Source: Escherichia coli
Lineage (GTDB): Bacteria > Pseudomonadota > Gammaproteobacteria > Enterobacterales > Enterobacteriaceae
Length of the DNA: 64,000 nucleotides
Assembly (NCBI RefSeq): GCF_046105845.1
Contig: NZ_CP151004.1
Reading direction: 5' to 3' (one strand)
Below are positions 4,639 to 59,095 of the stretch, piece after piece. A program made the position numbers and the translations under genes. The notes under the pieces were generated by a model. That model ran no database searches. It saw nothing but the letters and a program-made list of their open reading frames with translations, and was not told the DNA's origin. Each line of letters opens with the position of its first letter. The first letter of the stretch is position 1.

Positions 4639-4654
4639 TTAAGATTATTCCGCT

Positions 4655-4697
4655 GGCGGGTCGATTTATTTACGTAAATCGGCCCGCTTTCTTTTTA
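4655..4697 (+). terminator. Putative intrinsic terminator after speA
   Basis: Imperfect hairpin gcgggtcgattta / taaatcggcccgc followed by tttcttttt. Confidence 0.55.
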
Positions 4698-4783
4698 TAT
4701 ATTCTTAAAAATAATTTAGCTGCTTTTCTTATTAAATAATCCCCCTACAATCGCTGCATTAATTAAATACAGAGGGAACGGTT

Positions 4784-5515
4784 ATGAAAAAAGGGAAAGT
4801 ACGTAGCGCGTTGATAGCATTAGCCGTGCTGCTGGCCGGTTGTTCCAGTAATGCGCAGTATAATAGCAGTGCATCGGGCAATGTCGGCACCGCCTGGGGT
4901 GGGGATGTGCACTCATCGGTTCAGGGCGTATCTGCTGAGCGAGCCTGGCGCGATCCGGCAGAGATGATCGTTATTAGTTATTCGACTAATGTTCCTTCCG
5001 GCTATGATCGCGTTTATAGCATTCGTATTAACGAACTGGAATATGCTATTCGCGATGGTAATTTTAATTCTCTACCTATTACGCGTGTTTATGATTCATC
5101 CAATAATGAACCACGCTATATTGTCCATGCCAGAGTCGGAATGAATTATCAATTATATGTCCGTAATTACAGTCGTAACACCAACTACGAGATCGTTGCT
5201 ACGGTTGATGGCCTGGATGTGCTGAACGGCAAGCAAGGTTCGCTGAATAACAACGGCTATATTGTGAATGCCGGAGATTCGTTAGCGATTAAAGGATTTC
5301 GCAAAGATAAACATACCGAAGCGGCTTTTCAGTTCGCCAACGTTGCTGATTCCTACGCAGCCAATTCGGCGCAAGGCGATGTGCGTAATACCGGGGTAAT
5401 CGGCTTTGCCGCCTTTGAATTACAAGGCTCGGCGCAAAACGCGATGCCGCCGTGCTCTGGACAAGCCTTTCCGGCAGATAACAATGGCTATGCGCCGCCA
5501 CCGTGTCGGAAATAG
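4784..5515 (+). CDS. Predicted lipoprotein of unknown function (243 aa)
   Basis: ATG at 4784 with SD gaggga 5 nt upstream; N-terminus MKKGKVRSALIALAVLLAG-C has a signal peptide and LAGC lipobox; Asn/Tyr/Ser-rich mature part; gene visibly AT-richer than speA/speB; own terminator downstream. Confidence 0.75.
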   Translation: MKKGKVRSALIALAVLLAGCSSNAQYNSSASGNVGTAWGGDVHSSVQGVSAERAWRDPAEMIVISYSTNVPSGYDRVYSIRINELEYAIRDGNFNSLPITRVYDSSNNEPRYIVHARVGMNYQLYVRNYSRNTNYEIVATVDGLDVLNGKQGSLNNNGYIVNAGDSLAIKGFRKDKHTEAAFQFANVADSYAANSAQGDVRNTGVIGFAAFELQGSAQNAMPPCSGQAFPADNNGYAPPPCRK

Positions 5516-5582
5516 CAACCTCGCTTGATGCCTCGTCCATTTAAGGCGATAATTAGCGCAAACTTGTGTTTCGCAAATCCAA

Positions 5583-9646: not shown

Positions 9647-9668
9647 TCGGTAAGATGCTTTGTGAGAA

Positions 9669-9692
9669 GGGCCGCGAAAGCGGCCCTTTTTT
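9669..9692 (+). terminator. Intrinsic terminator of tktA
   Basis: gggccgc gaaa gcggccc hairpin followed by tttttt. Confidence 0.8.
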
Positions 9693-10591
9693 ACTTGGTG
9701 GAGATAAACGGAACTGTGCTGCCGGGGATCATGGTATCGGGTAGCTTACCGTCCCAACGCTCTGCAGTGGTTAGGGCAACAAGTCCGGGATTATCCCGCA
9801 GAGCTTCACCGCGCAGGCGGATAGCTTCTGCTTCAGCCGCACTTTTTAAACGAATAGTTTCAGCCTCTGCCGCGCCTCTTACGCGAATAGTCTCAGCTTC
9901 TGCTTTGGCTGCCGCCAGTTTACTGTCTGCTTCAGCCTGGGCCTGAGTTACTGCTATTTGCGCCTGGATTTTCTCTGTTTCCAGATTTTGCTTACGTGTG
10001 GCAATGGCGACTTCTGCTTTCATTCGATCTTCAATCGATTTTTCATAAGCGTCAGAAAAATCAATATTTTCAATCTGGACACCATCAATCACCACCGGGC
10101 CAACAACGGCTTTACGCATTGCATTTTGCAGATCCTGAACCAGTTTTGTACGATCCTGTACCGCGCTGATGGCGGTATATTGGCCGAAAACGTTCTCCAG
10201 TTGAGTTGGCAGCTGGCGGACGATCAGACGCTCTTTTAAAGATTCAATGGTGTTGTAGGTTGTATAAACTGCGCCAGCTTCTGAAGGTTTAATGTGGAAG
10301 CTGACTGATACTGTCATTTGTGCCGGTTGCTGGTCGCGGCTGTAGGCCCTGATAAACCACAGCCTGATTACGCGTGGAAATTTTCTCCACGCTTTCCATA
10401 AAAGGGATCTTAAAACCCAGACCCGGCTCGGCAACTTTTACGATTTTTCCGTAGCGCAGCAAAATGCCGCGTTCACCTTCATTAACGGTGTAATACGAGA
10501 GAAATGGCAGCACAACCACGGCAAGCACGCCAATGACGATAGCAATAGATTTTTGTGGGCGAAATGAGGTTATTGAAACAGGTGCTTTCAT
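9691..10591 (-). pseudogene. SPFH/band-7 (stomatin/prohibitin/HflC-like) membrane protein gene with disrupted reading frame
   Basis: N-terminal part (ORF 10289..10627; real start likely MKAPVSITSF at 10591 with SD aaggaag) and C-terminal part (ORF 9691..10434) are offset by one frame; junction near 10342-10354. N-terminal TM helix; C-terminal AEAETIR coiled-coil repeats and ...ERWDGKLP motif. Confidence 0.6.
9815..9905. repeat. Three imperfect ~27-nt tandem repeats inside the SPFH coding sequence
   Basis: Units like gcggatagcttctgcttcagccgc / acgaatagtttcagcctctgccgcgcc / acgcgaatagtctcagcttctgc encode AEAETIR(V/L)... repeats on the minus strand. Confidence 0.6.
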
Positions 10592-10627
10592 ATGAATCTT
10601 CCTTGAGTAAAGTGGGGAATATGTCAC

Positions 10628-10967
10628 ATGAGGTGAGGAGAAAATAGCCGACAGGTGAGAATTCAGAATCTATAAAGGGGTATAGCGAAAAAACATTGCA
10701 TTAAAAAAGTATGTTTTCGGACATTCAATAAATAAATGGCGATATGCATCACAAATACAACAACAATCAAAATGTTGATTTTGTGACAAACATAACAAAT
10801 ACAAAATTGACTTTAAAAATATCAATTTCATGTTGTTGTTATTTAAAGTTTTATTATTTTTGTTCATGGGGTTTTTCTTCTCGCGTACCCAATTGCTTTC
10901 ATTAAACCGCACGAGTATTTTATTTTTACCGCCGGACGGTACCCTAAAAATAAAATAAGGATAATTT
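10628..10967. promoter_or_regulatory. Very AT-rich intergenic region carrying the divergent promoters of the SPFH gene and cmtBA
   Basis: About 340 bp with long A/T tracts and short repeats (caaatacaa twice); a partial CRP-like tgtgacaaacataaca motif. Confidence 0.4.
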
Positions 10968-15102: not shown

Positions 15103-15612
15103 ATGGCGACGCTGACAGAAGATGATGTGCTTGAGCAACTGGATGCACAGGACAATTTATTTTCATTTATGAAAACTGCGCATTCTATTTTGCTCCAGGG
15201 GATACGCCAGTTTCTGCCGTCGCTGTTTGTCGATAATGATGAAGAGATCGTCGAATATGCAGTGAAGCCGTTACTCGCCCAAAGCGGCCCGCTTGACGAT
15301 ATTGATGTTGCACTGCGTTTGATTTATGCGCTGGGAAAAATGGATAAATGGCTGTACGCCGATATCACCCATTTTTCCCAGTTCTGGCATTACCTGAACG
15401 AACAGGATGAAACGCCCGGATTTGCCGATGACATGACCTGGGATTTTATCAGCAACGTCAATAGCATAACCCGCAATGCGACTCTCTATGACGCGTTGAA
15501 AGCGATGAAGTTCGCCGATTTCGCCGTCTGGTCAGAGGCGCGTTTTAGCGGGATGGTCAAAACGGCGCTGACGCTGGCAGTAACGACAACCTTAAAGGAA
15601 TTAACGCCGTGA
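15103..15612 (+). CDS. yggD: MtlR-family protein YggD (reported as fumarase E)
   Basis: 169-aa ORF MATLTEDDVLEQLDAQDNLFSFMKTAHSILLQG... Confidence 0.88.
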   Translation: MATLTEDDVLEQLDAQDNLFSFMKTAHSILLQGIRQFLPSLFVDNDEEIVEYAVKPLLAQSGPLDDIDVALRLIYALGKMDKWLYADITHFSQFWHYLNEQDETPGFADDMTWDFISNVNSITRNATLYDALKAMKFADFAVWSEARFSGMVKTALTLAVTTTLKELTP

Positions 15613-16322
15613 AAATCGAACTGACGGTGAATGGACTAAAGGTACAGGCGCAGTACTCTGATGATGAAATTGAGAATGTTCATAAACCGCTACTGCGTAT
15701 GCTGGCGGCCTTACAGACGGTAAATCCGCAGCGGCGTACGGTGGTTTTTCTTTGCGCTCCGCCGGGGACGGGTAAATCTACCCTAACCACCTTCTGGGAA
15801 TATCTCGCGCAACAAGACCCGGAACTACCCGCTATTCAGACACTCCCGATGGATGGTTTTCACCATTACAATAGCTGGCTGGATGCGCATCAATTGCGCC
15901 CCTTCAAAGGCGCACCAGAGACATTTGACGTTGCGAAACTGGCGGAAAATCTGCGCCAGGTCGTGGAAGGGGATTGTACGTGGCCGCAGTACGATCGACA
16001 AAAGCATGATCCTGTTGAAGATGCGTTGCACGTTACCGCACCACTCGTCATCGTCGAAGGAAACTGGCTATTACTGGATGATGAAAAGTGGCAGGAGTTG
16101 GCATCTTTCTGCGATTTTTCTATTTTTATTCATGCACCTGCTCAAATTCTGCGGGAGCGCTTGATTAGTCGTAAAATTGCGGGAGGATTATCGCGGCAAG
16201 AAGCCGAAGCTTTTTATGCCCGAACCGATGGTCCCAATGTCGAGCGTGTGCTGGTGAATAGTCGTCAGGCCAATCTGATATTAGAGATGACCGAAGAAGG
16301 CAGATATCACTTCAAAAGCTGA
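15609..16322 (+). CDS. yggC: P-loop nucleoside/pantothenate-kinase-like protein
   Basis: 237-aa ORF with Walker A motif APPGTGKST; start overlaps the yggD stop. Confidence 0.88.
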   Translation: MKIELTVNGLKVQAQYSDDEIENVHKPLLRMLAALQTVNPQRRTVVFLCAPPGTGKSTLTTFWEYLAQQDPELPAIQTLPMDGFHHYNSWLDAHQLRPFKGAPETFDVAKLAENLRQVVEGDCTWPQYDRQKHDPVEDALHVTAPLVIVEGNWLLLDDEKWQELASFCDFSIFIHAPAQILRERLISRKIAGGLSRQEAEAFYARTDGPNVERVLVNSRQANLILEMTEEGRYHFKS

Positions 16323-31719: not shown

Positions 31720-32952
31720 ATGGCAAAGGTATCGCTGGAGAAAGACAAGATTAAGTTTCTGCTGGTAGAAGGCGTGCACCAAAAGGCGCTTGAAAGCCTT
31801 CGTGCAGCGGGTTACACCAACATCGAATTTCACAAAGGCGCGCTGGATGATGAACAATTAAAAGAATCCATCCGCGATGCCCACTTCATCGGCCTGCGAT
31901 CCCGTACCCATCTGACTGAAGACGTGATCAACGCCGCAGAAAAACTGGTCGCTATTGGCTGTTTCTGTATCGGAACAAACCAGGTTGATCTGGATGCGGC
32001 GGCAAAACGCGGGATCCCGGTATTTAACGCACCGTTCTCAAATACGCGCTCTGTTGCGGAGCTGGTGATTGGCGAACTGCTGCTGCTATTGCGCGGCGTG
32101 CCGGAAGCCAATGCTAAAGCGCACCGTGGCGTGTGGAACAAACTGGCGGCGGGTTCTTTTGAAGCGCGCGGCAAAAAGCTGGGTATCATCGGCTACGGTC
32201 ATATTGGTACGCAATTGGGCATTCTGGCTGAATCGCTGGGAATGTATGTTTACTTTTATGATATTGAAAACAAACTGCCGCTGGGCAACGCCACTCAGGT
32301 ACAGCATCTTTCTGACCTGCTGAATATGAGCGATGTGGTGAGTCTGCATGTACCAGAGAATCCGTCCACCAAAAATATGATGGGTGCGAAAGAGATTTCA
32401 CTAATGAAGCCCGGCTCGCTGCTGATTAATGCTTCGCGCGGTACTGTGGTGGATATTCCGGCGCTGTGTGACGCGCTGGCGAGCAAACATCTGGCGGGGG
32501 CGGCAATCGACGTATTCCCGACGGAACCGGCAACCAATAGCGATCCATTTACCTCTCCGCTGTGTGAATTCGACAACGTCCTTCTGACGCCACACATTGG
32601 CGGTTCGACTCAGGAAGCGCAGGAGAATATCGGCCTGGAAGTTGCGGGTAAATTGATCAAGTATTCTGACAATGGCTCAACGCTCTCTGCGGTGAACTTC
32701 CCGGAAGTCTCGCTGCCACTGCACGGTGGGCGTCGTCTGATGCACATCCACGAAAACCGTCCGGGCGTGCTAACTGCGCTGAACAAAATCTTCGCCGAGC
32801 AGGGCGTCAACATCGCCGCGCAATATCTGCAAACTTCCGCCCAGATGGGTTATGTGGTTATTGATATTGAAGCCGACGAAGACGTTGCCGAAAAAGCGCT
32901 GCAGGCAATGAAAGCTATTCCGGGTACCATTCGCGCCCGCCTGCTGTACTAA
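31720..32952 (+). CDS. serA: D-3-phosphoglycerate dehydrogenase
   Basis: 410-aa ORF MAKVSLEKDKIKFLLVEGVHQKALESL... with NAD-binding GIIGYGHIG and C-terminal ACT domain. Confidence 0.97.
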   Translation: MAKVSLEKDKIKFLLVEGVHQKALESLRAAGYTNIEFHKGALDDEQLKESIRDAHFIGLRSRTHLTEDVINAAEKLVAIGCFCIGTNQVDLDAAAKRGIPVFNAPFSNTRSVAELVIGELLLLLRGVPEANAKAHRGVWNKLAAGSFEARGKKLGIIGYGHIGTQLGILAESLGMYVYFYDIENKLPLGNATQVQHLSDLLNMSDVVSLHVPENPSTKNMMGAKEISLMKPGSLLINASRGTVVDIPALCDALASKHLAGAAIDVFPTEPATNSDPFTSPLCEFDNVLLTPHIGGSTQEAQENIGLEVAGKLIKYSDNGSTLSAVNFPEVSLPLHGGRRLMHIHENRPGVLTALNKIFAEQGVNIAAQYLQTSAQMGYVVIDIEADEDVAEKALQAMKAIPGTIRARLLY

Positions 32953-32971
32953 TTCCCCTTCTCTGAAAATC

Positions 32972-33004
32972 AACGGGCAGGTCACTGACTTGCCCGTTTT
33001 TTTA
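32972..33004 (+). terminator. Intrinsic terminator of serA
   Basis: acgggcaggtcactgacttgcccg hairpin followed by ttttttt. Confidence 0.85.
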
Positions 33005-33149
33005 TCGCTTCTCCCGCGCATGTCGCTGCCATTTGTAGTGCGCTGCAATTGCCTTTGCGAGTCTGCTCGAAGAAATAAATCAAAGTCAGATCAATGCGTT
33101 GTGTTTATTTAATGGGGATTTACGATGGCAGGGCAGCATGGGGCTGTAA

Positions 33150-37824: not shown

Positions 37825-39027
37825 ATGCAAAGTGTTGATGTAGCCATTGTTGGCGGCGGCATGGTGGGGCTGGCGGTTGCCTGTGGCTTACAGGGGAGCG
37901 GCTTACGCGTTGCCGTACTGGAGCAGCGCGTACCGGAACCTCTGGCGGCGAATGCACCACCACAACTGCGCGTTTCGGCTATCAATGCCGCCAGCGAAAA
38001 ATTACTCACCCGTCTTGGCGTCTGGCAGGACATTCTCTCTCGTAGGGCCAGCTGTTATCACGGTATGGAAGTGTGGGACAAAGACAGCTTTGGTCACATT
38101 TCGTTTGACGATCAAAGCATGGGCTATAGCCATCTTGGGCATATCGTTGAAAATTCAGTGATTCACTACGCGCTGTGGAACAAAGCGCATCAGTCGTCAG
38201 ATATCACTCTGTTAGCCCCCGCAGAATTACAGCAGGTCGCCTGGGGAGAAAATGAAACCTTCCTGACGCTGAAAGACGGCAGTATGTTAACGGCGCGTCT
38301 GGTGATTGGCGCGGACGGCGCTAATTCCTGGTTGCGCAACAAAGCCGATATTCCGCTGACCTTCTGGGATTATCAGCATCACGCGCTGGTAGCGACCATT
38401 CGCACTGAAGAACCGCATGATGCGGTGGCGCGGCAGGTTTTCCATGGCGAAGGCATTCTGGCCTTTTTACCGCTTAGCGATCCGCATCTTTGCTCGATTG
38501 TCTGGTCACTGTCGCCAGAGGAAGCGCAGCGGATGCAGCAGGCAGGTGAAGACGAATTTAATCGCGCGTTAAATATCGCTTTTGATAATCGCCTGGGCTT
38601 ATGCAAGGTTGAGAGCGAGCGTCAGGTGTTCCCGCTGACGGGGCGTTATGCCCGCCAGTTTGCCGCACACCGTCTGGCGTTGGTGGGCGACGCCGCGCAT
38701 ACTATTCACCCGCTCGCGGGGCAGGGCGTTAATCTCGGCTTTATGGATGCCGCAGAGCTGATTGCCGAACTGAAACGGTTGCATCGTCAGGGTAAAGACA
38801 TCGGGCAGTACATTTACCTGCGTCGCTATGAGCGTAGCCGTAAGCACAGTGCGGCGCTGATGCTGGCTGGTATGCAGGGATTTCGCGATCTGTTTTCCGG
38901 TACCAATCCGGCGAAAAAACTGCTGCGTGATATTGGTCTGAAACTGGCCGACACGCTTCCTGGCGTTAAACCACAACTTATCCGCCAGGCAATGGGATTA
39001 AACGATTTGCCTGAATGGCTGCGTTAA
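37825..39027 (+). CDS. ubiI: 2-octaprenylphenol hydroxylase (VisC/UbiI, FAD monooxygenase)
   Basis: 400-aa ORF MQSVDVAIVGGGMVGLAVACGLQGSGLRVAVLEQ... Confidence 0.95.
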   Translation: MQSVDVAIVGGGMVGLAVACGLQGSGLRVAVLEQRVPEPLAANAPPQLRVSAINAASEKLLTRLGVWQDILSRRASCYHGMEVWDKDSFGHISFDDQSMGYSHLGHIVENSVIHYALWNKAHQSSDITLLAPAELQQVAWGENETFLTLKDGSMLTARLVIGADGANSWLRNKADIPLTFWDYQHHALVATIRTEEPHDAVARQVFHGEGILAFLPLSDPHLCSIVWSLSPEEAQRMQQAGEDEFNRALNIAFDNRLGLCKVESERQVFPLTGRYARQFAAHRLALVGDAAHTIHPLAGQGVNLGFMDAAELIAELKRLHRQGKDIGQYIYLRRYERSRKHSAALMLAGMQGFRDLFSGTNPAKKLLRDIGLKLADTLPGVKPQLIRQAMGLNDLPEWLR

Positions 39028-39474
39028 AAATTTCTCATCTGTTGTTTATTTGATACCCATCACACTTTCATCTCCCGGTTTTTTCGCCGGGAGATTTTCC
39101 TCATTTGAAATAAACTAATTTCACCTCCGTTTTCGCATTATATTTTCTAATGTCATGATTTTTTGATTTAGTGTTTTTTGACAATTTTTTAGTTCTTAAT
39201 ATTGCATTAATCAAATTAACTTTCTCATCTGTTTATCTTTATATAGAGATTTGTTCATTTTTTGGTTTTTTATTCTGTTGTGATTTTGGCGTTTTTTAAC
39301 CATAAGCTAATGTGATGATCAATTTTACCTTATGGTTAACAGTCTGTTTCGGTGGTAAGTTCAGGCAAAAGAGAACGATTGCGTTGGGGACCGGGAGTGG
39401 CTCCGATGCTGGGTTTCGTGGTGATAATTTCGCCATGGAAAAGTTGTCAGCCCCGCTTATTCAATGAGGACAAG
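39028..39474. promoter_or_regulatory. Long AT-rich regulatory region upstream of the gcvTHP operon
   Basis: 447-bp non-coding stretch with multiple A/T tracts; the gcv operon is known to be controlled by GcvA/GcvR, Lrp, PurR and CRP. Individual sites not mapped here. Confidence 0.5.
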
Positions 39475-40569
39475 ATGGCACAACAGACTCCTTTGTACGA
39501 ACAACATACGCTTTGCGGCGCTCGCATGGTGGATTTCCACGGCTGGATGATGCCGCTGCATTACGGTTCGCAAATCGACGAACATCATGCGGTACGTACC
39601 GATGCCGGAATGTTTGATGTGTCACATATGACCATCGTCGATCTTCGCGGCAGCCGCACTCGGGAGTTTCTGCGTTATCTGCTGGCGAACGATGTGGCGA
39701 AACTCACCAAAAGCGGCAAAGCCCTTTACTCGGGGATGTTGAATGCCTCTGGCGGTGTGATAGATGACCTCATCGTCTACTACTTTACTGAAGATTTCTT
39801 CCGCCTCGTTGTTAACTCCGCCACCCGCGAAAAAGACCTCTCCTGGATTACCCAACACGCTGAACCTTTCGGCATCGAAATTACCGTTCGTGATGACCTT
39901 TCCATGATCGCCGTACAAGGGCCGAATGCGCAGGCAAAAGCTGCCACACTGTTTAATGACGCCCAGCGTCAGGCGGTGGAAGGGATGAAACCGTTCTTTG
40001 GCGTGCAGGCGGGCGATCTGTTTATTGCCACCACTGGTTATACCGGTGAAGCGGGCTATGAAATTGCGCTGCCCAATGAAAAAGCGGCCGATTTCTGGCG
40101 TGCGCTGGTGGAAGCGGGCGTTAAGCCATGCGGCCTGGGCGCGCGTGACACGCTGCGTCTGGAAGCGGGTATGAATCTTTATAGTCAGGAGATGGACGAA
40201 ACCATCTCTCCTTTAGCCGCCAATATGGGCTGGACTATCGCCTGGGAACCGGCAGATCGTGACTTCATCGGTCGTGAAGCCCTGGAAGTGCAGCGTGAGC
40301 ATGGCACAGAAAAACTGGTTGGTCTGGTGATGACCGAAAAAGGCGTGCTGCGTAATGAACTGCCGGTACGTTTTACCGATGCGCAGGGCAACCAGCATGA
40401 AGGCATTATCACCAGCGGGACTTTCTCCCCGACGCTGGGTTACAGCATTGCGCTGGCGCGCGTGCCGGAAGGTATTGGTGAAACAGCGATTGTGCAAATT
40501 CGCAACCGTGAAATGCCGGTTAAAGTGACGAAACCTGTTTTTGTGCGTAACGGTAAAGCCGTCGCGTGA
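39475..40569 (+). CDS. gcvT: Glycine cleavage system T protein (aminomethyltransferase)
   Basis: ORF 39352..40569 trimmed to [39 protein letters not shown] at 39475 with SD tgagga; 364 aa. Confidence 0.96.
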
Positions 40570-40982: not shown

Positions 40983-40990
40983 CGGCTTTA

Positions 40991-41065
40991 TTCCTCTTCT
41001 GCGGGAGAGGATCAGGGTGAGGAACTTTTACGCCTCACCCTCACTCTCTTCGCAAGGAGAGAGGT
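40991..41065. repeat. GC-rich palindromic intergenic element between gcvH and gcvP
   Basis: cctcttctgcgggagagg...gggtgagg...cctcaccc...ctctcttcgcaaggagagagg; nested inverted repeats sharing motifs with the element at 44054-44156. Confidence 0.5.
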
Positions 41066-41100
41066 TCACAATTCACTGCACGTTTCAGGAACCATCGCTC

Positions 41101-44240: not shown

Positions 44241-44984
44241 TTGGCTATAGCACTTGTGACCGGTGGCAGTCGCGGCATCGGGCGGGCAACTGCATTACTG
44301 TTGGCGCAAGAAGGGTATACGGTGGCGGTTAATTATCAGCAAAACCTCCACGCGGCGCAGGAAGTGGTGAACTTAATCACGCAAGCCGGTGGCAAGGCAT
44401 TCGTGCTCCAGGCGGATATCAGCGACGAAAATCAGGTCGTCGAGATGTTTACCGCAATCGATCTGCACGATGAACCGCTAGCTGCACTGGTCAATAACGC
44501 CGGGATCTTGTTTACCCAGTGCACCGTAGAAAACCTTACCGCAGAGCGAATCAACCGGGTACTTTCCACCAATGTGACGGGACATTTTCTCTGTTGCCGC
44601 GAGGCGGTAAAACGCATGGCGCTGAAAAATGGCGGTAATGGCGGTGCTATCGTCAACGTCTCTTCAGTGGCCTCACGGCTGGGATCTCCGGGGGAATACG
44701 TTGATTATGCGGCATCGAAAGGGGCGATTGATACGTTAACCACAGGGCTGTCGCTGGAAGTCGCTGCGCAAGGAATTCGCGTTAATGGCGTGCGGCCCGG
44801 TTTTATCTATACCGGAATGCACGCCAGCGGTGGCGAACCTGGACGCGTTGATCGCGTTAAGTCGAACATCCCCATGCAGCGCGGTGGGCAGGCGGAAGAG
44901 GTCGCGCAGGCCATCGTCTGGCTGTTAAGTGATAAAGCCTCTTATGTCACGGGAAGTTTTATCGATTTGGCGGGCGGAAAATAA
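44241..44984 (+). CDS. ygfF: Short-chain dehydrogenase/reductase
   Basis: 247-aa ORF with SDR Rossmann motif TGGSRGIGRA and catalytic Y-x3-K. Confidence 0.92.
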   Translation: MAIALVTGGSRGIGRATALLLAQEGYTVAVNYQQNLHAAQEVVNLITQAGGKAFVLQADISDENQVVEMFTAIDLHDEPLAALVNNAGILFTQCTVENLTAERINRVLSTNVTGHFLCCREAVKRMALKNGGNGGAIVNVSSVASRLGSPGEYVDYAASKGAIDTLTTGLSLEVAAQGIRVNGVRPGFIYTGMHASGGEPGRVDRVKSNIPMQRGGQAEEVAQAIVWLLSDKASYVTGSFIDLAGGK

Positions 44985-45045
44985 GATGGGAAAGTTATCT
45001 GACCGGATGCAACACAATTGGCGTTGCATCCGGCACATCAGATAA

Positions 45046-46506
<1,461 letters not shown>

Positions 46507-58660: not shown

Positions 58661-59095
58661 CAGTGTTTCTCCTTTCGCCCGCCAGAGTAAAAAGCAACCG
58701 TTTACGTTAATGAAACTGTCTAAACACATGCTCGTGGAGTGCCAGTTTTTGCGAGGAAGGGGAGTTAGAGACAGGAATTGCGGAGGCAATCACATAATCG
58801 TGGTTAAACCACGAAAATGAGAAGAGAACCTGACAATGGAATTATCTGTAATTTTCTCATATTGATATTTCATTAATCATTCTGGCATGTCGCACTCTCG
58901 CTTTTAATCGTTTTTATCTGGATAGCGCTCTTTTGGTCGGCAATGTTGAAATAATGAAAGCGGCACAGATTGAGGGGCAATAATTTGAACTCAGTCGCAA
59001 AATTATAATTAAAACGGTCATGCTACCTAATATATGCCCGTTTATTGCATCGCGAAATTTGAGAAGACATAACTCATTAAATGAAAGGGATGCAA

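Follow-up and report, generated by a model that had tools for sequence, protein, structure and literature searches.

The 447-bp AT-rich gap ahead of gcvT in Escherichia coli as the probable gcvTHP control region, with a conserved stem-loop in its leader

The ubiI–gcvT gap

In the 64,000-nucleotide stretch of Escherichia coli DNA considered here (the window; contig NZ_CP151004.1), the stop codon (TAA) of ubiI (also known as visC) occupies 39025–39027 and the gcvT ATG lies at 39475, leaving a gap of 447 bp (39028–39474). The gene order ubiH-ubiI-gap-gcvT-gcvH-gcvP is the same in the window and in K-12, where the gap also measures 447 bp. Among the roughly 60 intergenic gaps annotated in the matching 65 kb of K-12, none is longer than the ubiI–gcvT gap; the runners-up measure 435 and 423 bp. 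An initial annotation of the window had described an unusually long AT-rich region ahead of gcvT, and this description holds: the GC content of the gap is 0.349 overall compared with 0.515 for the window, and that of its core (39101–39300) is 0.235, with 53.5% T and 23% A on the plus strand. The last 105 bp of the gap, which form the leader, have a GC content of 0.52 and are thus not AT-rich. About one-third of the gap is something other than upstream control DNA, namely the ubiI terminator, the minus-strand gene yqfI, and the leader of about 105 nt.

The many A/T tracts that had been noticed in the gap are borne out by counting. There are 14 A/T homopolymer tracts of at least 4 nt, which places the gap in the top 1.2% of 447-bp windows. 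Seven tracts reach at least 5 nt, each of them exactly T6, compared with 1.4 expected, and a count of seven was reached in none of 2000 composition-matched shuffles. Short direct repeats, also reported by the initial annotation, survive in part. The pentamer CTAAT is present three times, always on the plus strand (39115, 39147, and 39307), with 0.35 copies expected (P = 0.009), and CTAATGTSATGAT is found at 39147 and 39307, with 0.12 expected and no other copy in the 64 kb; repeated 8-mers overall, however, are not enriched in the gap (P = 0.23). An exact 13-mer, TTTCTCATCTGTT, occurs at 39031 and 39221 (P = 0.013). This repeat is probably a strain-specific coincidence, as it is absent from K-12.

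The gap begins with the end of the ubiI transcription unit and closes with the start of gcvT. The ubiI intrinsic terminator (39070–39099, plus strand) has a 10-bp stem (ATCTCCCGGT/GCCGGGAGAT), a 6-nt loop, and a TTTT tail. Its RNA fold of −17.6 kcal/mol (z = −4.7) was matched by none of 200 shuffles, and its stem covaries across genera. A simple terminator scan missed this element because the T run is only four residues long. At the other end, the Shine–Dalgarno sequence GAGGA (39466–39470) and the true gcvT ATG at 39475 (plus strand) are invariant in aligned leaders, and the N terminus of GcvT is conserved across aligned species. The RefSeq ATG is at the equivalent position in all 11 E. coli records inspected, and the advice that the extended gcvT open reading frame be ignored was sound. 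The GTG-extended start at 39352 was rejected as spurious: the putative extension varies from 62 to 177 nt across species, with insertions and deletions that are not multiples of three.

Operators and promoter elements

All but one of 5426 complete E. coli genomes carry the segment; its best match is strain EC931 (99.6%), and K-12 MG1655 stands at 95.9% (over 701 bp). The operator and promoter blocks (39100–39152 and 39296–39386) are the same as in K-12 at 144 of 144 positions, and the locus, the CRP site, GcvA sites 3, 2, and 1, the promoter, the PUR box, and the distances between these elements are shared as well. The differences from K-12 comprise 22 of 143 positions in the spacer to which Lrp maps in K-12, two positions in the leader, and the start codon of yqfI. 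Control of gcvTHP by GcvA/GcvR, Lrp, PurR, and CRP is known from work of the Stauffer laboratory. The 447-bp gap is most likely the E. coli gcvTHP control region, working as described for K-12. As such the region is not new, and the finding, though real, is an ordinary one. The multifactor control of the glycine-cleavage operon that the initial annotation had suggested gains support from this orthology and from recognizable GcvA, CRP, and PurR sites; the genes for the regulators themselves (gcvA, gcvR, lrp, purR, and crp) all lie outside the window. In a published model of the system, GcvA activates, GcvA and GcvR together repress via a loop aided by Lrp-induced bending, and glycine releases GcvR (PMC13104608).

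For comparison across species, a GcvT search with one genome per species yielded 80 loci, with ubiI upstream in nearly all of them and a ubiI–gcvT gap of 376–537 bp in the Enterobacteriaceae. Conservation was read from an alignment of 45 Enterobacteriaceae upstream regions. Conservation in these 45 species is concentrated in the two upstream CTAAT blocks, the promoter-proximal dyad, the extended −10 element, and the PUR box; of the CRP site, the right half is conserved. These footprints coincide with the sites expected from the mapped gcvT promoter elements, which counts in favor of the gcvTHP control region, as does the identity of the operator and promoter blocks with those of K-12. Spacing between the blocks is fixed as well. 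The distance from the CTAAT of GcvA site 3 to that of site 2 is 32 bp in 59 of 59 species, and GcvA site 1 lies 50 bp from the −10 block in 68 of 69. A conserved-block spacing of 226–227 bp is kept in those Erwinia, Winslowiella, Pantoea, Rahnella, and Edaphovirga loci in which both blocks were located.

From the geometry of the elements and their agreement with K-12 footprint coordinates, we infer that gcvT transcription starts at 39368–39370. The footprints that we take to apply in K-12 are −271/−242, −241/−214, and −69/−34 for GcvA, −229/−92 for Lrp, −3/+17 for PurR, and −313 for CRP; with the start set at 39368–39370, every element falls within a few base pairs of them. The sequences themselves show that the region is orthologous, that its sites are conserved and rigidly spaced, and that a riboswitch is lacking; the assignment of proteins to sites, like the regulatory logic, is drawn from the literature.

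Two GcvA sites lie upstream. Site 3, the putative upstream activating site (39100–39125, with the CTAAT core at 39115–39119), is near-invariant in the 45 species and identical to K-12; counted from an assumed start at 39370, the block spans −270 to −245, next to a presumed footprint of −271/−242. Part of this site, AAACTAAT, recurs in the K-12 gcvA-gcvB control region, which is the other known GcvA target. The presence of AAACTAAT at this independent region counts in favor of reading the gap as the gcvTHP control region. Site 2 (39130–39152, with the core at 39147–39151) is a conserved block at −240 to −218. The third, promoter-proximal GcvA site, site 1, which would serve repression (39296–39339, with CTAAT at 39307–39311), is a conserved block identical to K-12. 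It is a 15-nt inverted repeat, TTAACCATAAGCTAA/TTACCTTATGGTTAA, with 93% complementarity, and lies at −74 to −31, where the footprint is presumably −69/−34. The restriction of CTAATGTSATGAT to sites 2 and 1 again speaks for a gcvTHP control region. The GcvA consensus has been quoted as "T-N11-A containing CTAAT" (PMC3658693).

The gcvT promoter is represented by an extended −10 element, TGGTAAGTT (39353–39361, plus strand), and the surrounding block (39348–39365) is near-invariant in the 45 species. No conserved −35 hexamer was found in the 45-species alignment, and a generic sigma-70 scan found no plus-strand promoter in the gap; both observations fit an activator-dependent gcvT promoter. The PUR box, a putative PurR operator (AAGAGAACGATTGCGT, 39369–39384), overlaps the predicted start site. 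It matches the PurR consensus, as we assume it to be, at 12 of 16 positions, and with 10 such matches in the 64 kb, this match is weak when taken alone. The box is conserved in 39 of 39 aligned leaders. In genera other than Escherichia it reads AACGTTTGCGT (13 of 16); the two aligned Escherichia sequences, those of the window and K-12, carry an A at 39378, which puts them one step farther from the PurR consensus.

A CRP-like site, TTTGATACCCATCACA (39049–39064), is centered at about −312 from the predicted start; it follows the ubiI stop codon and precedes the ubiI terminator. It has one mismatch to TGTGA-N6-TCACA and is the same in K-12. Five CRP-type matches are present in the whole window compared with 2.15 expected, so this match too is weak alone. 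Its right half, GTCACACTT, is near-invariant in the 45 species, whereas the left half is kept only in Escherichia, Citrobacter, Salmonella, and some Enterobacter. We take this site to be the −313 CRP site mapped by Wonderling and Stauffer in 1999. Binding-site searches for the proposed regulators thus returned matches for GcvA, PurR, and CRP, but the Lrp consensus did not rise above chance.

The gcvT leader RNA

The window leader, which extends from the predicted start to the gcvT ATG, folds into two hairpins (39381–39409 and 39415–39439) with a total energy of −40.3 kcal/mol (z = −2.0). Stem-loop 1 (39381–39409, plus strand, about +12 to +40) has a 5′ arm that opens with GCGT, the last four bases of the PUR box. 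RNAalifold assigns it nine pairs and finds compensatory changes at four. Pairing reaches 90% and 79% in its helices, and six of the seven inner pairs change on both sides. This covariation was reached by none of 500 shuffles and was far lower in slid-partner controls. Among 76 distinct leaders, most of those from Enterobacteriaceae form a hairpin that starts at or within two bases of the PUR-box GCGT, and the mean hairpin energy is −15.2 kcal/mol for the sense strand compared with −10.7 kcal/mol for the reverse complement. The better folding of the sense strand points to RNA rather than to a DNA palindrome. Stem-loop 2 (39415–39439, plus strand) has weaker support. It is present in both the minimum-free-energy and the centroid folds, with 68% of cells paired and nine of ten pairs changing on both sides in an alignment that is not structure-aware.

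Stem-loop 1 is followed by a conserved sequence, TGGGTTTCGT (39410–39419, plus strand), and GGGTTTCGT 3′ of the stem is conserved in aligned species. The end of this stretch is the position equivalent to an RNA 3′ end in K-12. The Term-seq study of Adams 2021 lists a 3′ end at 3050723(−) in cells grown in LB to an OD of 2.0, labeled as upstream of an ORF ("upstream ORF −56 gcvT") (PMC7815308). This coordinate maps to 39419 of the window, 10 nt past stem-loop 1. A second 3′ end listed in the same study, 3050602, was scored as not Rho-dependent (PMC7815308); it corresponds to 39540, 65 nt into the gcvT ORF, and served as a check of the coordinate mapping. gcvT is not discussed in that paper (Adams 2021, PMC7815308).

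In addition to the operators, it is possible, although we hold the proposal only tentatively, that the leader contains a cis-acting RNA element composed of stem-loop 1 and GGGUUUCGU, which would cause premature termination, pausing, or the accumulation of a stable 5′ fragment of about 50 nt. Such an element would add to the gcvTHP control region as described above and would not replace it. The covariation of the stem, the recurrence of the hairpin at or near GCGT with the stronger sense fold, and the K-12 3′ end 56 nt upstream of the ATG all favor it, and some genera (leaders L015, L022, L051, and L052) have U5–U6 after the stem. In E. coli, however, the tail is UGGGUUUCGU, with no U-tract directly after the stem and just UUU starting 5 nt past it, and the terminator scan was negative. 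Only one of three growth conditions gave this 3′ end, its authors took it no further, and a decay intermediate could account for it. Shuffle controls can also be beaten by related sequences that have no structure, and neither a ligand nor a protein or small RNA partner is indicated. A search of Rfam families, RF00504 included, gave no match in 38500–40000 even at E values up to 10. Compared with the catalogued 5′ UTR sites of premature termination (PMC7815308), gcvT is alike in having a K-12 3′ end just past a stable hairpin but differs in its U-poor tail; termination, pausing, and processing are all possible.

Two other leader candidates were rejected. An upstream ORF at 39436–39468 has its ATG only in E. 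coli and a few others and is not conserved. A hairpin enclosing the Shine–Dalgarno sequence and the ATG, seen in a single-sequence fold, has no consensus structure in 49 species.

The T-rich spacer, yqfI, and the regulation of gcvT

Between GcvA sites 2 and 1 lies a T-rich spacer (39153–39295) that corresponds to the mapped Lrp-binding region of K-12 and combines a drifting sequence with a fixed length. The distance from the CTAAT of site 2 to that of site 1 is 160 bp in 12 species and 161 bp in 44, and thus within 1 bp in all 56 species in which it was located; E. coli sequences were left out of this tally, and their distance is also 160 bp. The stretch aligned to 39153–39300 is 148–149 bp long in 45 of 45 species and poorly conserved in sequence. 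E. coli represents an AT-rich extreme: its spacer has a GC content of 0.22, and across species the median is 0.38 and the highest value 0.51. An excess of T over A is general (median T 0.40 compared with A 0.21).

Within E. coli, the allele in the window is rare and divergent from K-12. Of 5402 genomes compared over 39150–39300, 4298 are only 80–90% identical to the window and 30 are at least 99% identical. Relative to K-12, the spacer differs at 15.4% of positions (22 of 143, in the region where Lrp was footprinted), four-fold degenerate sites differ at 6.2%, and the operators do not differ (0%). Among 13 E. coli haplotypes, which were picked by spacer identity so that spacer diversity is inflated, the spacer has 54 segregating sites among 143, a π of 0.126, and no insertion or deletion; π is 0.003–0.019 in the operator and promoter blocks and about 0.07 at third codon positions of ubiI and gcvT. 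We read the spacer variation as roughly neutral drift under a length constraint. The idea that this is an exceptional hypervariable locus was rejected: the spacer ranks among the top 0.4% of 143-bp windows in divergence from K-12, but four further segments within the 64 kb are equally divergent and the sample is biased. As a separate observation, a fourth CTAATG has been gained within the spacer in haplotypes L087–L089.

The spacer sequence itself gives few clues to a bound protein. The Lrp consensus, YAGHAWATTWTDCTR, is not enriched, with one match of at least 12 of 15 positions compared with 1.4 expected (P = 0.73 from shuffles). Helically phased A-tracts or AA/TT periodicity at 10–11.5 bp were not found in the spacer (P = 0.52), so intrinsic curvature is unsupported. 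A 9-bp periodicity peak (z = 6.5) is present and unexplained; it may reflect a TGATTTTT-like repeat of period 8. Binding of Lrp to the allele in the window is assumed.

Could the spacer be unconstrained filler, or AT-rich DNA of the H-NS type, that plays no architectural role and keeps its length merely by descent? Its low sequence conservation would fit, as would the missing enrichment of the Lrp consensus, the missing A-tract phasing, and a divergence within E. coli that is about equal to or greater than that of four-fold degenerate sites (0.126 compared with a mean of 0.087 among the haplotypes and 0.154 compared with 0.062 against K-12). Descent alone is nevertheless hard to reconcile with a length that varies by no more than 1 bp among all 56 species, drawn from many genera, with the lack of any insertion or deletion in 13 haplotypes despite seven slippage-prone T6 runs, with a neighboring leader that ranges from 62 to 177 nt, and with the retained bias of T over A. 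We consider filler very improbable. The alignments instead support a spacer that would act as a ruler, its length constrained and its exact sequence free, although the sequence alone does not identify Lrp. Looped or wrapped promoters that pair a remote LysR-type activator site with an architectural protein (for example, Lrp at ilvIH or IHF/Lrp-assisted loops) likewise have operators about 160 bp apart and a fixed-length spacer under low constraint. The gcvT spacer differs from these in having no recognizable Lrp consensus or phased A-tracts, and the likeness is architectural only.

The same AT-rich stretch carries yqfI (39101–39184, minus strand; 27 codons), which is antisense to gcvT, overlaps GcvA sites 3 and 2, and has a RefSeq annotation at the corresponding position of K-12 and of ten further strains. 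The translation in the window is LSKNTKSKNHDIRKYNAKTEVKLVYFK followed by a stop, that is, (M)SKNTKSKNHDIRKYNAKTEVKLVYFK, and differs from K-12 at two residues. Both the window and EC931 start the gene with TTG, where K-12 has ATG, and RefSeq still annotates the EC931 allele. Tagged YqfI has been detected in K-12 (VanOrsdel 2018, PMC6001520). This detection, the position of the gene on the minus strand of 39101–39184, and a Lys/Asn-rich protein that suits A-rich minus-strand codons would be expected if the region existed mainly to encode a divergent small gene and its promoter, with gcv control secondary. We think this hardly credible. An intact reading frame is confined to Escherichia and two Citrobacter; in most genera the ORF is interrupted or runs on, and the underlying DNA is conserved like an operator. 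Beneath the C-terminal half of yqfI, the sequence barely varies at any of the three codon positions, since it is also GcvA operator DNA. In addition, only 32 bp of the 143-bp spacer fall within yqfI, the allele in the window has not only the TTG start but also a weaker Shine–Dalgarno-like sequence, and a sigma-70 scan gave no convincing minus-strand promoter upstream of the gene. The pattern argues that yqfI is a young ORF superimposed on old operators and not the reason for the region.

Finally, a glycine riboswitch (RF00504), which often precedes gcvT in other bacteria (PMC13104608), as in Bacillus, Vibrio, and Neisseria, and likewise provides glycine-responsive control of the operon, is absent from this leader and can be dismissed: there is no Rfam match, the AT-rich part lies upstream of the predicted start, and the leader is only about 105 nt long with two simple hairpins.

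We therefore return to the gcvTHP control region, for which the following scheme can be proposed. The gcvT promoter would be weak and activator-dependent, with its extended −10 element (TGGTAAGTT), no conserved −35, and a start at about 39368–39370. Glycine sensing in enterobacteria is protein-based, via GcvR and GcvA. GcvA, a LysR-type protein, would activate gcvT from the two upstream sites (39100–39152), and the promoter-proximal dyad (39296–39339) would mediate repression by GcvA and GcvR when glycine is absent. The two clusters of GcvA sites, about 160 bp apart, could be joined by bending or wrapping of the T-rich spacer, as by Lrp in K-12, with the spacer serving as a ruler in which length matters and exact sequence does not. 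PurR would impose purine repression at the PUR box over the start site, and CRP would act from its site about 312 bp upstream.

Beyond this scheme, a joint proposal can be made with considerable doubt: that the Enterobacteriaceae gcvT leader holds an undescribed cis-regulatory RNA, in which a covarying stem-loop is joined to the PurR operator at its 3′ edge and followed by GGGUUUCGU, and which would arrest or pause part of the transcripts or set free a stable 5′ fragment; and that the spacer of about 160 bp is a length-only ruler throughout Enterobacterales, with divergent alleles in E. coli that tune expression. A spacing requirement has been reported experimentally for K-12, and the spacer would be a natural illustration of it: an enhancer-like bacterial spacer whose length is kept within 1 bp over many genera while its sequence changes at a roughly neutral rate.

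Overall, the main result confirms a textbook regulatory region, and both the call made by the initial annotation and its correction of the gcvT start were sound. The coincidence of the leader hairpin with a published but unexamined 3′ end is the only real lead to something new. Together, the conserved hairpin and the 3′ end offer a testable hypothesis of post-initiation control of glycine cleavage. If true, the leader element would add a post-initiation layer, about 50 nt past the start, to an operon thought to be controlled at initiation only.

The upstream part of the ubiI–gcvT gap

The two halves of the CRP-like site near the ubiI stop codon (39049–39064) differ in how widely they are retained. 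The right half, GTCACACTT (39058–39069), is near-invariant among 45 species, whereas conservation of the left half is limited to the closest genera. Because GTCACACTT lies directly 3′ of the ubiI stop codon in most genera, it may have a role beyond that of a full CRP dyad.

The small-protein gene yqfI (39101–39184, minus strand) shares its DNA with GcvA sites 3 and 2. Its start codon is TTG rather than ATG in both the window and EC931, the E. coli strain that best matches this region, and in both two substitutions change NG to HD. The open reading frame is unbroken only in Escherichia and in two Citrobacter.

The T-rich spacer that separates GcvA sites 2 and 1 (39153–39295) is an allele rare in E. 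coli. At least 99% identity to the window was found in 30 of 5402 E. coli genomes, and the majority of the 5402 carry a spacer that is 80–90% identical to it. We found no spacer indels among 13 E. coli haplotypes. Haplotypes L087–L089 contain an additional CTAATG at a position equivalent to about 39225. AA/TT dinucleotides recur in 39153–39300 with a period of 9 bp (z = 6.5 in the window), as they do in the species average, and not with the 10–11 bp expected of helical phasing.

Divergence from K-12 elsewhere in the window

Divergence of 15–19% from K-12, which matches that of the gcv spacer, is also seen in 143-bp segments at 521–663, 15568–15710, 32937–33079, and 44910–45052; the mean across the 64 kb is 2.3%. 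Two further segments have no K-12 counterpart. The first (4639–5573), between speA and speB, holds a lipoprotein-like open reading frame of 243 residues (4784–5515). The second (9648–10889), adjoining tkt, holds a 247-residue frame (9691–10434, minus strand), which a second open reading frame overlaps in a different frame.

The PurR operator and RNA 3′ ends

In an alignment of 39 leaders, the center of the PUR box, the predicted PurR operator at 39369–39384, is A at 39378 (AACGATTGCGT) in both Escherichia sequences (window and K-12), whereas the remaining 37, from other genera, read AACGTTTGCGT. On sequence comparison, this difference suggests that the operator is weaker in E. coli. The sole match to the 16-bp PurR consensus with three or fewer mismatches in the 64 kb is AAGCAACCGTTTACGT (58692–58707), which is no better than chance, with at least one match in 37 of 100 shuffles.

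The final four nucleotides of the PUR box form the 5′ start of a stem-loop with covariation in the gcvT leader (within 39381–39419), which is followed by a conserved GGGTTTCGT. Term-seq in K-12 places RNA 3′ ends at the equivalents of 39419 and of 39540, the latter 65 nt inside gcvT (Adams 2021 supplements, PMC7815308). The same study reports a strong "orphan" 3′ end between gcvH and gcvP, at K-12 position 3049097 on the minus strand (Adams 2021, PMC7815308). A hairpin, GGGTGAGG...CCTCACCC, precedes this end, which falls in the gap corresponding to 40983–41100 of the window and may represent an intra-operon terminator or processing site.
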